Assembly (NCBI GenBank): GCA_963843555.1
Contig: CAWJKV010000011.1
Location: 1 to 64,000 of the forward strand
From: an uncultured Methanosarcinales archaeon
GTDB taxonomy: Archaea > Halobacteriota > Methanosarcinia > Methanotrichales > Methanotrichaceae
DNA: 64,000 nucleotides
Direction: 5' to 3'
A program made the position numbers. Below, one piece after another: positions 45,001 to 54,000 of the stretch (position 1 is its first letter; each line of letters starts with the position of its first letter).

Positions 45001-48000
45001 ATTGTTGATACCGAAAATACTGGACAATCGAAATGAAGCCCAGCTATTAAGATACTCATTTAAATTCGTTCTCACTGTTCTGAGACTTGCCAACGCATGC
45101 CGCTCCGTGGTCCTTAAATTTCATGAACTCAAAGTGTGATGCAAGCCATGACCCGTACCATAGCCGAAATAAACGAGCGAATCAAGAGCCAGGATGCAGT
45201 TGTGCTGACCGCCCAGGAGGTCTGTGATATCGTCAAGGACGGCGGAGAGCTCGCCCTGAAAGACGTTGACGTTGTCACCACTGCCACCCGGGCCATAATG
45301 AGCGGAACCTATGCGGTGCTGTCGTTCCCCGTTGCAGAGCCCGGCACATTTGTCCGTGCCGAAAAGGTCTCGATCAACGGAGTTCCTGCCTGCATCGGGC
45401 CATGCCCAAATGAGCGGTTAGGCGTCATCGACCTGATGGTCTACGGCACGGCACATAGCAAAGCTAAATCCGATTATGGCGGAGGACATCTGTTCCGGGA
45501 GCTGGTCGAGGGCCAGGAGGTTCAGGTTGAGGTTGAAACCTGTGAAGGAGGATCTCTTACAAAGGATATATGCCTGGATGACATCCCCTATGCTCAAATC
45601 CACTCCACTCGCAACGCCTTCAAGAACTATGTGGCCTTTGTAAACCCCAGAACTGCTCCTTTGCCCACGATCTTCAGCGCGCTGCAATTTCCGCCCAATT
45701 TTAGCTGTGCCACGGTGTCCGGATGCGGTCAGCTCAATCCCATCAAGAACGATCCTAACCTGGAGACGATCGGCATAGGCACACGCATCCTCCTGAATGG
45801 CGCCCAGGGGTTTGTGATAGGCACCGGCACTCGCAGCATGCCATCCAGGCCGAACCTTCTCGGGCTGGCTGACATGCACCAGATGAGCCCTGAGTACATG
45901 GGCGGTTTCATCACGTCCGCAGGCCCGGAATGCATAGGCTCCTGGGCGGTGCCTATTCCGGTGCTGAATGAGTCCATCCTGGAGAAGCATACTGTTGCAG
46001 GATAGGGATATCCCCCTCACCATAATGGACGTAAATATTCGCCAGAAGATCGGCAAGACGACCTATGAGGACGTCTGGGGCTCGTCTGATCTGGAGATCG
46101 AGTTCGATCCGGGCAGGTGCACCAGCTGCAGGAGATGTACTGCGGAGCCCGTCTGCCCCATGAGGGCGATCGCAATTGTTGGCGATCGGGTTATGCGCGA
46201 TGAGGGTAAATGCTTCAATTGCGGTCTATGCGTCTCGCAATGCTCCGGCGGGGCGTTCCGTGGGAATCTCGGCGCCATCAACCTTGCGGGCAGGATGATT
46301 CCGATTCAACTCCGCCAATCGGATAGAGCGAGAGCTGTAAAGCTGGCAAAGGAACTGAAATCGCAGATTCTGGATGGATCTTTCAGGATGACAGAGATGG
46401 TGGAAAGATTGTGAGGGTCTCCTTGGGTCAGTAATGTGGAGCTACAATTCCCCAGAGATGGGCATAGCTCGGATCGCCATACCTAATGATAAGATGATTG
46501 ACTTCTTTTTGATTTTGAATGAGAGTCAGAGCTAAACTTTTTGCCATTAGATATGTACAAGTTGATTGTTTAGGCCACAAAGATGCTCACCATAAGACAG
46601 ATTTCTTGATTTCCATCATGGGTCGGCCTGTGCATATCTGCCAGGCTTGAGCCTTATCCGGTAGATCTGAAAATGATCATATAGTGAACTACGCCCTCTC
46701 CTTGTTCCATTCACGTCTTGGTTGCATAGTTGAATAAATATCTCTCGGTGCTAACCCTAGCTGGTCCTAATTGCCTTGGCAGCCCGCGCGAGAGAAGATG
46801 TTGCCCACACATAAGGAGTACGCACGTGTGCGCGTGGGCGCGGGTGCCCGCGTGGGCTTGCCGCCTGAGGGGGCCGGGAGGCCGGTCGGGCCTGGTGTCA
46901 GGGGGGCTTATCTCCTGAAGGGGCAGCTCTTTGGGGACTGGATTTTTGGAAGAAGATGGCAGTTCATCATTATTATTATCAGAAAATTATACCAAACAAC
47001 TAACTGATCGCATCACAGAGGCACAGAGCGCACGGAGACTCGACGACTGAGGTTTCGGGCAGTCTCCGGCTTTGACGATCCTTGCTGGCTGTGGGCCAGC
47101 CTCGCTGGCAGCCCATCGAGCATGCGGCATCCTTGCCTCGGATCCACGGCTCGCGCTCCAGGGTCTGCCGCTGTGGGCTGGGACTGTCCAGGGCTGCATC
47201 AGTATGGCTGATTGACTGCCGCTAAACTTAAGTGTCCCTAAATCAAGATAGATTTGAGGCATCTAATGCGCGCTAAAGCTCAGTTAGGCAAATCGGATCT
47301 GCCAATAAATATCGGAAGAAAGGCAAGAAGAAAGACCTCACGAGCCGGCTTTCTTCCTGGTGACGCAGCTCATGGCAAGACACCTGAGGTCAAAGATGTC
47401 CTGGAAGTTCTAAAAGCGATGCATGTGATGATTCCAGAGACCTCTGAGGTCAGCGAGTACCTTCTTGCCCATCCGGATTTAAGCTGCCTGATTCCACCGA
47501 TCTGCTGCAAACTGATCAAGACGTTCCCAGAGGATGCAAAGCTCTTTTTGGAGATTTACCGCGATCCCGAGATTCATGATGAGTATCTGACGCTTTACGT
47601 TCGAAAGAATGTGTACGAAGAGCAGATTTTGGACTGTATTGATGAAGCCATGGCAGAGTTCGAGCCGGCCCTGGGATCTGCATCGGGATGGCTCCTGGTG
47701 ACTACAGATTTTCTTTTGCCAAAATAAGGAACTATAAACTCCATGTCCTTTGATTGGCGAGAATACCTCGATCTGGCAGAAGCCCTTATGGGAAGGAATA
47801 GCAAGCCCATAACAATTGAAGCTGCATTCAGATGCTCAATGAGCAGGATCTACTACGCTGCATTCTGTCATGCCAGGAACTACGCACAGAAAAAACAAAG
47901 TTTTGCCGCAAAGTGCAATGCTTCTGACCATGCACGGATTAGAGAGCATTTTCGATCCAGCGGAATGACCAGGATTGCCGGCAACCTGGACAGACTGAGA

Positions 48001-51000: not shown

Positions 51001-54000
51001 AGTATCCGGGGCGAGGACGTTTATTTGGAATTGATGGGTGATCGCAGCTACGTGTATGAGCTGGCAAAGAGATTGGAACGAAATATTGGATGAAATGACG
51101 GCCCCTATTACAATTTGTCCGTAGATCCAAGCATCGTGCGTGCTCTCGCATGGGCGCGCGTGCCCGCGTGGGCTTGCCGCCTGTGGGCCGGGAGGCCGGT
51201 CGGGCCTGGTATCAGGGGGGCTTGTCTCCGGGATTGGCGAGCTTTTGGGTGGGCTGGATTTTTGGAAACGAATGGCGGTTTGCTATTTTATTAGCTGAAA
51301 ATTATAACCGAACAACTACCGATCACACCACAGAGCCACAGAGCGCACAGAGGACGCACAGAGACTCTTGGGCGAAGTTTCGGGGCTGTCGTCTCCAGCT
51401 TGCGATTCATTGCGAACTGTGGGCTAGCCTCGCCCGGCAGCCCATCGACCGTGCTGCATCCTTGCCGGGGTCCACGGCTCGCGCTCCTGGGTCCGCCGCC
51501 CATGAGCCGAGCCGTCCGGGCCGCATCGTCGTCTGCCGGGCGGGCGCTCGTGCGTGCTCCCGCATGGGCGCGCGTGCCCGCGTGGGCTTGCTGCCTGGGG
51601 GGCCGGGAGGCCGGTCGGGCCTGATGTCAGGGGGGCTTGTCTCCGAAAGCGGCAGCTTTTCGGGCTGGATTTTTGGAAGCGATAATGTCTCACTTTACTA
51701 TTCACTGAAAATTATGACATAACAATTACGGATCACCACAGAGACACAGAGCGCACAAAGGAAGCACAAAGACTCTTCGGCGAGGATCTTCCTGAACAGT
51801 CTCCATCTTTGCGATCCTTGCGGCTGTGGGCTAGCCTCGCACGGAAGCCCATCGGCGGTGCTGCATCCTTGCCTCGGGTTCCACGGCTCGCGCTCCTGGG
51901 TCCAATGCACGTGGGCCGGGTTGTCCGGGCAGTGTCGCCGTCTGCCGGTCGGCGCTCGTGCGTGCTCTCGCATGGGCGCGCGTGCCCGCGTGGGCTTGCC
52001 GCCTGGGGGCCGGAAGGATGACAGGCAGGAGTACACCCAATTTCAGGGCTGGCTGTAAGGAGCCCTCGTTCGGTGCGACATGACCGAAGTGAAAGGCCAG
52101 TATTGGTGTATGTGTGAAAATCAAGATCAATTGCTTGCAGATAACACTAGCGCAGCAAAGTCCTACTCTAAAGAATGCCGACAAATTGAAAATCTTACAT
52201 CAGCCTTAATTTTTGAGATTTCGTCAGTAGGTCCTTCTATTAGATATCTATCCAAAAGAGATAGATCCCGACGGGTACCCTTCACTTTAAGGAATGCAGC
52301 AACAACCAGCAGGCCCCTCAAGCAGCAATTCAGTCCCAACCATTTCTCAATGATTATTTGAGCCCGAGGATCATGTCGCTTTTCAAATTTCTCAACCCAA
52401 TGAGTAAAATGCCACATTAGGCTTTCTGAATCCAAACTCAGATCTGCCGAAAATTTATCCAATTCTTTTAGCAGATCTTCATCGGTAGGGTAGAAGCGTA
52501 TTCGCCATTCTTCAGTAAGCTTGTTGGAAATGTACTCCTTGTTCTCATTCAGGAATTCCTATTCGTTGGCAGAATTCTGCTATATGCCATAGCGTATCGT
52601 CATCAAGATTATCGAAATATGGAACTAATCGTTCCAAGTGCTTCACTGTAAGGTATTGCTGTCTCCTTTCTTCGGAGAACCCAAAAAACCAATGAAGCTG
52701 TTTAAAGATTGGCACCTTGCCTGGACATCCGCGAATACTGGAATCTGCAAGTCTCAGGGTTTTTTCCGTACCAATGTACAGAGCCGCTTGGACAAATCTT
52801 GGAATGCATTTAAGATACTTCCAATATTTCTCCAGTAGCGTTTCTGCATCTTTAGAAGGTATCGTAGTCAAAATTCGTGAAAGATAATACGCTGTATTGT
52901 CAGAGGTTTCATCAGGAATTTTATTCTCTAATGCCTCCATGTAATGTTCAGTAACGGCCATGATCTCATCACACCAAACATTGTGTGTAATGTGGAACAT
53001 GTGCATATCACTTAACAAAAGAGATGCTAATTGCTTTGTAACGCTCATATCACCAAGCTGCGCGCGTCTACGTATTGCCATTCGGTAAAGCGAAGATTCG
53101 GAAGCTATTTCTCTCAGGATGCCAAGTTGTTCTTGTTGAGCGTTATTGCTCCATATTCTAAACGCCTGATATCTCACCTGTCCATCAGCTTCAAGAGAAT
53201 TCCATTGTTTTTTTAGCATTTCCATTGATGGTTGTGACAACATGCGGCCGGCAGGACGAGTTGGATTCCATGTATCTGATAAATACATTGCAAAAAAAGT
53301 CCCTTTTTCTTTAGCGGCAAACTGCACGATGCATTCGATCGCTTCTGGTGTGTCGATGCGTTCAAGTATTATTGCAATTGGCCAGTACAAAGAATCACAT
53401 GAGTTCTGCAAGCCAATAAAATAATTAATGGCTTCATTACTGATGCCTCGCGACATGGCAAAAGTAAGTTCCTCTGAAACCTGAATCCTTGGACTAGGCT
53501 CAAAATTAGATTTATCTTTATCAGATAAGCTTGCCAAATAGTTCATCATCGGCCCGAGAAGTTTATCCGCTCGATCAGTGCAACATCGGGATCCTGCCCA
53601 GATTGCATCTGCCAGGACGTATTCTTTATCGTTTGCGAGATTCCAGCAATCAATAATTTCTTTTTCCAATTCAACAAACCCTAAGAAACCAACTAAAGCC
53701 AAGGAGCCTTTGCGTTCCTTATCCGTAGAACTAAGAGATGTTAATAATCCCCTTAGCTCATTCAATAGTTGTACTTTATGTCGCTTTTTGGCGTGTTCAA
53801 TCATTTGATCTCGCAAATCAGAACCCGTACTGATAGAAACCCGATTACAGTATTCTGCGCCACTTCTTGCACAGCCATTCCGCAAGCGAGATAAAAGAAT
53901 TGGCCAATAATGAGGGAACTTTTCAGTTATATCAAGAACGGCAGTAGAATCCGTATCAATTAGACTCCAGCAGATTGAATTAACGACGGAATCCAGGACG

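Follow-up and report, generated by a model that had tools for sequence, protein, structure and literature searches.

Toxin-antitoxin cassettes in shuffled order between long direct repeats point to a gene-shuffling platform without an integron integrase in Methanothrix

Our question was what brings together four toxin-antitoxin (TA) gene pairs that are separated by copies of a GC-rich repeat on a Methanothrix chromosome. To our knowledge, archaeal TA pairs look mobile and the mover is mostly unknown. The window, that is, the whole 64,000-nt stretch of DNA that was analysed, holds seven repeat copies, which the genome-wide survey's note had taken for recombination sites of an integron-like platform that collects TA modules. 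The platform part of this proposal stands, in that TA cassettes recur with fixed polarity and in shuffled order. The repeats as integron-type recombination sites do not, and the arrays point to an undescribed gene-shuffling platform without the integrase of bacterial integrons. The features of the locus are as follows.

46823..47201, + strand: repeat segment 1, with a core end, AT block, heptamer array and the start of the next core
46967..47038, + strand: copy 1 of the conserved AT-rich block plus heptamer array (sub-profile E 8e-13)
47266..47727, + strand: cassette 1 gene A, 153 aa, family-less, presumed antitoxin partner from its position
47743..48111, + strand: cassette 1 gene B, 122 aa, HEPN-like (PADLOC PDC-M05B, E 8e-5)
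48128..48486, + strand: repeat segment 2, close to a full unit (profile matches)
48609..49100, - strand: cassette 2 PIN/VapC-type toxin (PF01850, E 1e-16)
49072..49260, - strand: cassette 2 AF2212-like antitoxin (PF01954, E 5e-16)
49345..49462, + strand: repeat segment 3, GC core only (profile matches)
49586..49969, - strand: cassette 3 HepT-like ribonuclease toxin (PF01934, E 1e-30)
49929..50231, - strand: cassette 3 MNT antitoxin (PF01909, E 4e-15; NF047752 below cut-off)
50330..50533, + strand: repeat segment 4, GC core up to unit position ~205 (profile matches)
50616..50819, + strand: cassette 4 putative antitoxin, 67 aa, family-less (family searches without match)
50809..51093, + strand: cassette 4 RelE/YoeB-like toxin, weak (PDB 1wmi, E 0.1; TIGR02116, E 0.04)
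51134..52017, + strand: repeat segments 5-7, a tandem of 2.2 units with period 408 (tandem-repeat detection)
51280..51363, + strand: AT block with TATA-like motif, then CACAGAG heptamers, 26-27 nt between
52545..55841, - strand: STAND/NACHT-like NTPase, 1098 aa, GC 0.40, in a variable slot between array and nifH
56321..57139, + strand: nifH, conserved anchor of the array locus (orthologue PF00142)

All seven copies lie on one strand where the survey had placed them, and they are as alike and as GC-rich as it had described, with 88-97% identity of the common core in the 21 pairwise comparisons and a GC of 0.81 in the richest 150-nt window. The repeat length of 80-160 nt had to be revised, as this is the GC core portion. 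The copies are pieces of a non-coding unit of about 409 nt (about 350-410 nt across arrays) that consists of the GC core, a conserved AT-rich block and an array of CACAGAG heptamers. The whole reference unit is found at 51466-51874, and the final copy of the tandem breaks off where its GC core ends; further copies of the AT block and heptamers lie at 48334-48413 and 51694-51771. Across lineages the copies are about 65-80% alike. Many positions of the AT block are 95-100% conserved among 156 units; the block is the most conserved part of the unit and also its best dyad. It keeps a constant distance from the heptamers, with a TATA-like motif 26-27 nt ahead of the array in 133 of 155 units, and such spacing fits archaeal promoter geometry. 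Conservation beyond the need of a neutral homology tract, together with the fixed distance, suggests a bound protein. Of 84 spacers, 50 have the AT block and 36 the heptamers, falling to 3 and 2 among the 28 shortest, and the two together look like an optional, protein-bound module, perhaps a promoter.

Several other identities of the repeat were considered and rejected. Indels and stops are frequent, by eye, in the alignment of 156 units, which argues against a coding repeat. G-quadruplex patterns match the G-rich strand of 17 of 81 cores, compared with 20 in shuffles, the single Rfam match (E 0.7) falls within a gene, and ARAGORN found 0 tRNAs. A scan for sigma70 promoters, with a model ill-suited to archaea, and for terminators stayed at chance level (7 terminator-like sites, 6.4 expected). 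The AT/heptamer block reached z -2.1 on the bottom strand in 1 of 12 folds, and a dif-like dyad in the AT block was rejected for lack of covariation. One invariant site per spacer was also rejected: no long block is common to all 84 spacers (best 62/84), and the sole near-universal block (80/84) is an 8-mer that also occurs in 35 of 120 cassette interiors.

The four unlike cassettes that the survey had described hold up in part. The PIN/AF2212 and HepT/NTP_transf_2 pairs of cassettes 2 and 3 have adjacent toxin and antitoxin domains, the criterion for type II / VII TA systems. The RelE-like toxin of cassette 4 is a weak assignment, and cassette 1, previously listed as an orphan pair, is not fully orphan given its HEPN-like second gene. 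Pfam gave no match for this gene, and family searches including Pfam gave none for gene A, which is also present in other arrays. The NTPase reported beside the array was recovered; it resembles NACHT/STAND clusters by features only and matches Pfam AAA_16 at E 0.001. The array lies upstream of nifH, where relatives have different arrays and different defence genes. Behind the HcyBio gene of the left flank the array is present in 0 of 10 relatives, and the conserved anchor is nifH instead. A clean empty site was looked for in the relatives and not found, and a target-site duplication is unreadable.

The same genome holds two arrays additional to that of the survey, one at C16:47390-53620 with six gene cassettes and, at C9:77900-84830, a related array of inverted doublets, and the lone copy at C2:221403 was confirmed. 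Among the relatives, to which the survey had not turned, the unit is present in 38 of 58 other Methanothrix genomes and in 0 of 46 genomes of sister genera. We counted 51 same-strand arrays with genes, 135 cassettes and 28 recurring families. Where a metagenome locus has a HepT of 70% or higher identity to that of the window, the repeat is present in 41 of 46 cases, with varied neighbours and with 319 of 323 repeat matches on one strand; where the HepT is more distant, it is present in 0 of 33; the genomes are related and some metagenome loci re-assemble one population, thus these counts exaggerate independence. Because the layout recurs in independent genomes and metagenome contigs, an assembly artefact was rejected, as was a viral origin, with 0 matching stretches in IMG/VR for the one exact pattern searched. 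Literature searches found no account of the arrays.

The cassettes are about 0.5-1 kb in size, and of the 28 families 22 have clear TA domains, 4 have weak ones and 2 are non-TA. Orientation relative to the repeat is fixed in 53 of the 54 protein clusters with at least two members in arrays (221 genes), 24 reading along the repeat and 29 against it; the sole exception merges two MNT paralogues. No cassette inversions were found. Cassette order is indistinguishable from random, with 58 of 63 adjacencies distinct and both orders seen in 15 of 27 co-occurring pairs (14.3 +/- 2.7 under random order). Plain segmental duplication, the dull reading that the survey had kept beside its own, does not explain recurring cassettes in shuffled order by one such event.

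Most cassette families have the same GC-rich stretch on both flanks. Each family has junction phases of its own (0 of 2000 shuffles equally close), but these are spread across the unit, and the spacers are compositional, each family bringing its own flank end. The left flank of the PINg cassette stops at unit position 200 whichever of three neighbours precedes it, that of the ParE cassette at 231 after three, and that of the window's MNT/HepT cassette at 160 in four loci. In the window lineage most cassettes overlap in a single zone of about 50 nt in the core, so a fixed site may lie there. Cassette-plus-repeat blocks are duplicated in loci L001 (1056 nt at 95%) and L307 (1328 nt at 86%). In L204 and L125 a 28-33-nt junction fuses two different look-alike sub-blocks, as would a microhomology deletion product. 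L220, a contig of 2,871 nt with two cassettes, closes on itself via 120 identical repeat bases (1 of 155 loci checked); the closure may come from the assembler joining two identical copies of the repeat.

We favour, with a probability of about 0.55, a genus-specific cassette platform that recombines by homology and has no recombinase of its own. A TA operon would be captured once, inside a unit, through an illegitimate or microhomology event. Crossovers between direct repeats, by general recombination, single-strand annealing or gene conversion, could then excise the cassette as a circle that re-enters at any other copy, or the cassette could be duplicated or replaced between chromosomes or cells. 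Such crossovers keep polarity and scramble order, which would account for both patterns; the duplicated blocks and family-specific junctions also support the platform. The array would shed cassettes readily, so that addictive TA pairs would be the survivors, addiction being our proposal here, with defence or an antitoxin bank as a possible side benefit. Several points count against the homology reading. Excision and recombination are deduced from sequence patterns, and the identity between lineages is low for efficient homologous recombination between them. The conservation of the AT block and its fixed distance to the heptamers suggest more than a homology tract, and the model does not account for the spread of arrays to new loci or the entry of new cassettes.

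An enzyme of some kind could still drive the exchange. No integrase lies near the array, as the survey had stated, and a tyrosine recombinase profile matched in only 2 of 157 array loci. The 298 flanking genes form 215 clusters, the largest being amt with 5 members, and no recombinase is common to the array neighbourhoods. A family scan of 71 of the 215 representatives and some other genes found housekeeping genes, with IS transposases scattered among them; the remaining representatives were screened with the tyrosine-recombinase and GxxExxY profiles only, and they may include a singleton serine recombinase or reverse transcriptase. A dedicated enzyme acting in trans is a less likely alternative. 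In one version the PDDEXK_3 nuclease GxxExxY would bind the CACAGAG arrays and nick or cut them, thereby starting repair between repeats; in the other, a XerA-type host recombinase would use the imperfect dyad of the AT block, like XerCD at pdif sites. The heptamer block of the unit belongs to a repeat family flanking GxxExxY nuclease genes, a link that comes from our sequence comparison: it frames these genes in 12 of 12 loci in Methanothrix and 8 of 30 in other archaea, and is found at 1 of 12 tyrosine-recombinase control loci. PF13366 is given as of unknown function in the extract of PMC3424549. Also in favour are the exceptional conservation and dyad of the AT block, and the junctions just behind or inside the heptamers in HicAc (172-177 in 5/5), Tum (170-179 in 4/5) and HicAd (161-171 in 3/4). 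Against this, GxxExxY occurs in 0 of 157 array loci and 14 of 59 genomes, and was not found in the window's own genome (82% complete) or in G019, a single-contig genome, 99% complete, with several arrays. Many spacers lack the AT block or the heptamers, the shortest above all, the dyad shows no covariation, and cassettes are not inverted, unlike those of dif modules as described in the available text of PMC13141974.

The two ideas may be combined, and this too is a possibility that we regard as doubtful. The composite repeat would be a homology arm and an enzyme target at once, an integrase-free counterpart of the superintegron and with that a novel type of programmed cassette system. The trigger would be either the GxxExxY nuclease, acting in trans, or transcription that starts at a promoter within the unit and runs through the G-rich core, and TA and defence cassettes would be excised and reinserted as mini-circles moving between Methanothrix species. 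If true, the unit would be the first substrate for the widespread GxxExxY family.

It is rather unlikely that the repeat is a passenger, a MITE- or REP-like non-autonomous element piling up between TA genes in defence hotspots, with the order varying through ordinary deletion and local duplication. Gene-free single and tandem copies do exist, heptamer halves are dispersed in the window's own genome (33 sub-profile matches), and the array sites are hotspots with defence genes and IS elements. But independent insertions would not yield one strand per array, a fixed family polarity or family-specific junctions, and there is no inverted repeat with both arms within the window's array among the 25 longest of 81 listed. 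As regards order this reading is largely refuted, since deletion alone preserves order and more than half of the co-occurring pairs were seen in both. Still less probable is a regulatory element, in which the whole unit is a promoter with transcripts starting at the heptamers, driving the next cassette or dampening it as antisense, and shuffling is a by-product. The TATA-like motif and its spacing agree with this, but the clusters read both along and against the repeat, many spacers are without the block, and there is neither an Rfam family nor a conserved fold.

The arrays are not integrons, although they share exchangeable gene cassettes in variable order. The attC boxes have the consensus RYYYAAC (R'') and GTTRRRY (R'), and these had 0 matches on both strands of 5 window spacers. 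The hairpin symmetry that the survey had mentioned is absent: in the five window spacers neither strand folds more stably than its shuffles, and mean z was -0.44 for the top and +0.36 for the bottom strand in 40 of 81 GC cores, and -1.1 to +1.7 in 10 folds of the window's GC segments. Of 3 consensus pairs in 39 cores, 0 were compensatory, so the GC core gives no fold or covariation signal. IntI (TIGR02249) was above cut-off in 0 of 59 genomes, 29 of them less than 90% complete or more than 5% contaminated, the best reaching 65 bits against 265, and no single crossover point serves all cassettes. A CALIN, an integron cassette array minus its integrase with the repeats as attC sites, is thus very improbable and, the attC covariance model aside, refuted on its defining features, even though the commonest form of archaeal integron is a cassette array that has TA genes but no intI, and 2 attCs are listed for a Methanotrichaceae genome of another genus (PMC9668308 and its Data S1).

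These results show that there can be integron-like arrays of cassettes that have neither attC sites nor an integrase, and integron searches would pass over them for this reason. They also define a substrate that spans the genus and holds at least 28 cassette families in random order, in a major methanogen that uses acetate, and this opens excision, reinsertion and the part played by addiction to study by PCR and long reads. The heptamer repeats of GxxExxY genes, so far unexplained, are tied to a concrete setting of cassette exchange.

Known systems share some traits with these arrays. The PeSLs of T4-type phages are also repeated non-coding elements with a promoter-like part that punctuate non-essential genes in variable regions, and recombination between them shuffles modules and yields mini-circles; they are described, however, as phage sigma70 promoters with terminator stem-loops (PMC2839356, in part). 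The Methanothrix unit is chromosomal, archaeal and about 350-410 nt long, has no conserved stem-loop or terminator beyond the chance number, carries almost only TA pairs, and offers the possibly artefactual L220 as its one self-closing contig. Acinetobacter dif modules are often TA pairs, are reshuffled and lack a recombinase gene, but their plasmid-borne pdif sites are short XerC/XerD targets, and they give inversions as well as deletions (PMC13141974, in part). Here the sites are long direct repeats with fixed polarity per family, without alternating orientation and without a 28-bp dif-like site at every border, the sole dyad being the AT block. The REP/REPIN-RAYT system is an analogue of the GxxExxY heptamer-arm elements, but the window's own genome has no RAYT (Y1 transposase) gene flanked by repeats: its 2 Y1_Tnp genes above cut-off have no heptamer matches within 1.5 kb. 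The GxxExxY elements themselves (TIGR04256 / PF13366) are closer, as the unit holds one CACAGAG heptamer arm and the same genomes have inverted-doublet arrays of the heptamer family with similar cargo; the unit differs in being a single arm fused to a GC core, in direct repeat, in arrays without a GxxExxY gene. Integrons and CALINs, finally, have short cassettes between repeated sites, variable order, TA cargo and often no integrase nearby (PMC9668308, in part). The Methanothrix arrays lack attC boxes and a hairpin as well as a common crossover, no IntI was found in the genus, and the spacers vary in length, some holding several whole units. Their cargo also differs, with TA genes in 22-26 of 28 families; among the annotated proteins of archaeal integron cassettes the TA share is 10.5% in the same source.

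The seven GC-rich repeat copies described in the genome-wide survey's note lie on one strand at the positions it claimed, and their common core is 88-97% identical. The copies are real, but the extent of 80-160 nt assigned to them is not, since each is part of a longer unit with a period of 408. A reference unit (51466-51874) aligns to the remaining window copies, each over another stretch. When 156 units from the genus are aligned, the unit resolves into three parts. The GC core, about 120-160 nt long (0.79 GC), is degenerate; the AT-rich block, with its TATA-like motif, is very conserved; and the CACAGAG-type heptamers form an array that sits 26-27 nt beyond this motif in 133 of 155 units. 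Neither an Rfam family nor a tRNA nor a conserved fold accounts for the unit. Arrays in this genome include the following:

51134-52017, + strand: tandem units, period 408 (Tandem Repeats Finder)
C16:47390-53620 (contig C16; L001:3391-9619): second array, six gene cassettes
C9:77900-84830 (contig C9; L004): array punctuated by inverted heptamer doublets

The C16 array holds HicAB, a TumE pair, UPF0175/DUF3368, Phd/PIN and DUF4258/YgiT, with a second copy of the Tum block (95% identical) and a further HicB at the array edge. The C9 array is a second platform type, with small genes between inverted heptamer doublets, among them HicB-like and AF2212-like genes, as judged by eye, and a 173-aa gene present twice through a 1.4-kb tandem duplication at 95%. 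Mixed arrays at L028, L035 and L041 resemble it.

The survey's view of a platform carrying toxin-antitoxin (TA) cassettes is supported. In the window, its PIN/AF2212 (second) and HepT/MNT (third) cassettes were correctly identified; the "orphan" label of the first fails for the second gene, which is HEPN-like, and the RelE-like call for the fourth stands as a weakly supported RelE/YoeB-like toxin. Array loci, picked for having the repeat and with genes called by an in-house hexamer score, were merged to 78 loci with 75 same-strand repeat clusters, 51 of which contain at least one gene cassette. The 135 cassettes fall into 28 families (113 cassettes), with 22 unassigned. Clear TA-type domains are found in 22 families (including HicA/HicB, PIN with several antitoxins, MNT/HepT, DUF4258 with an MqsA/YgiT-like finger, ParE, TumE and UPF0175/DUF3368), weak support in four, and two are not TA, one being an acylphosphatase-domain protein and the other an unknown pair. 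Pairs with DUF4258 or UPF0175 are counted as TA. The acylphosphatase-domain protein has a long C-terminal extension and travels amid TA pairs (L072:1548-2153, L041:6352-6930, L166, L168). A two-gene cassette, L034:11346-12061, recurs in six arrays, matches no Pfam, NCBIfam or PADLOC family, and may be a new pair of the TA or defence kind.

Cassette length is near constant within one family, and 53 of 54 protein clusters keep one orientation relative to the repeat (24 with, 29 against), the sole exception being a cluster that merges two paralogous MNTs. Order is not conserved: 58 of 63 adjacencies are distinct, and both orders were seen for 15 of the 27 pairs found in at least two arrays (random permutation, 14.3 +/- 2.7). 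A metagenome scan with the window's HepT found the repeat in 41 of the 46 loci whose HepT is at least 70% identical, some of them one population re-assembled, with varied neighbours and 319 of 323 repeat hits on one strand; none of 33 loci of more distant HepT homologues had it. IS elements lie inside three arrays (L034:9306-10730, L041:10164-11471, L028:12045-14228), in one of which a DDE transposase splits the HicAB genes. At L308 the same three cassette genes occur in two oppositely oriented blocks separated by about 6 kb, either an inverted duplication or a misassembly.

The points at which the repeat stops and resumes at cassette borders are family-specific (mean within-family junction distance 45 vs 66, and 52 vs 78; 0 of 2000 shuffles), despite being scattered over the unit. 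In some families the left flank exists in more than one variant, and at a junction 28-33 nt long two different look-alike sub-blocks are fused. Spacers are made of one cassette's right flank, the next one's left flank and whole units, so most cassettes lie between direct copies of the GC core and replace the AT/heptamer module. Across the 84 spacers, no informative block is universal. Blocks of cassette plus repeat are duplicated within arrays. The two-cassette contig L220 (2,871 nt) carries the same 120 repeat bases at both ends, through which it closes on itself, and is either a mini-circle or an assembler loop; its relative L222 has a linear form.

We observe repeats in direct orientation, cassettes of fixed polarity and random order, overlapping flanks that are specific to each family, duplications, and no local enzyme. 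Our best reading, with a probability of roughly 55%, is that a cassette would be captured once, that homology between repeats could later drive its excision, reinsertion and unequal exchange, and that addiction may act as the filter deciding which cassettes remain. An enzyme acting on the arrays in trans is a possible but doubtful explanation. The heptamer block is the repeat framing GxxExxY genes, at all 12 of their loci in the genus and at 8 of 30 from other archaea, against 1 of 12 control loci. However, GxxExxY occurs in only 14 of 59 genomes, at no array locus, and is absent from a single-contig genome (99% complete) bearing several arrays. The three tyrosine recombinase hits of this genome map to C7 and to a site 35 kb away from the C16 array. 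A profile built from 12 proteins of this kind gave weak hits in 2 of 157 array loci, and the array loci share no flanking gene family. Around GxxExxY genes (L138-L149, L172-L201) the heptamer arms come in several variants; they are tandem-amplified at L180, and at L196 the gene lies within a long near-perfect inverted repeat of other sequence. A table in PMC3424549 gives PF13366 as unknown, and the GxxExxY passage of 10.1101/2021.01.26.428298 leaves repeats unmentioned.

Capture and homologous exchange leave mainly two facts unexplained: the AT block is strongly conserved, and it lies at a fixed distance from the heptamers. That the repeat is a passenger we consider unlikely, and that it is mainly a regulatory element very unlikely.

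A search with a typical unit gave matches at E <= 1e-10 in 38 of 58 other genomes of the genus, and in none of 46 genomes spread over 15 further genera in the family. The window's unit matched 21 of 24 congeners at E <= 0.001, some through heptamers alone, and none of 16 genomes that belong to two other families. An exact pattern search of a species-level genome collection gave 91 stretches. Among the 76 loci listed, to which we kept, record titles name 72 as Methanothrix or Methanotrichaceae, two as uncultured Methanosarcinales, one as Syntrophorhabdaceae (a 2-kb contig) and one as Chitinophaga, the last without a profile hit. It is from these titles that the genus takes its name here, Methanothrix. 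The exact pattern had no match in IMG/VR.

The repeat lies upstream of nifH in 10 of 27 loci examined, several being too short to tell; L026, L036, L037 and L203 are four further such loci. The closest nifH-anchored array (L307) has about ten cassettes; two of these are also among the four in the window (88-91% DNA identity), in a different order. The interval between array and nifH is a slot whose content varies: a TIR protein, a caspase/HD-CE protein, Hma, a type IIG/ISP enzyme, AAA_13 proteins, a STAND protein or transposases; PADLOC hits 8 of 31 slot proteins, one a doubtful methyltransferase. The window's STAND gene recurs at 79% in L325, behind a repeat truncated at about the same place, and Gabija genes lie beside or near three other arrays. 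Directly upstream of nifH the slot is a defence-gene hotspot across the genus (L306-L325), with DUF4238 and IS among its contents. The window's STAND-like protein (52545-55841) has no PADLOC hit.

None of 10 relatives has an array behind the left neighbour, HcyBio. The nearest at this flank (L162) has a short GC-rich stretch about 75 nt past the HcyBio stop, resembling a decayed core, and L165 a heptamer doublet at the matching spot. HcyBio is split over two frames in the window (45136-46414; a single ORF of about 420 aa in relatives) and nif genes at 57100-62500 appear frameshifted, both probably assembly indels. At 18000-22600, a region of low GC (0.30-0.34 at 18-20 kb) with a DUF488 gene behind it looks like a separate acquired island.

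The survey's integron reading is rejected. The arrays look like a CALIN (PMC9668308), yet lack the defining features that we tested; IntI exceeded the cut-off in none of 59 genomes. A CALIN has hardly any probability left. The main text of that paper makes no mention of Methanothrix, and in its Data S1 one member of the family, of another genus, has 2 attCs. Dif-module arrays (PMC13141974) are likewise alike in look, yet the dif-module features tested are lacking. Literature on archaeal integrons, GxxExxY, PeSL and dif modules gave no account of the arrays, nor did that on Methanothrix/Methanosaeta repeats, TA, cassettes and MITEs, though genome papers on cultured Methanothrix may mention repeats. 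In the literature covered, the repeat family and its architecture are undescribed, and the mechanism is most likely of a known kind; the arrays would work similarly to PeSL shuffling (PMC2839356).
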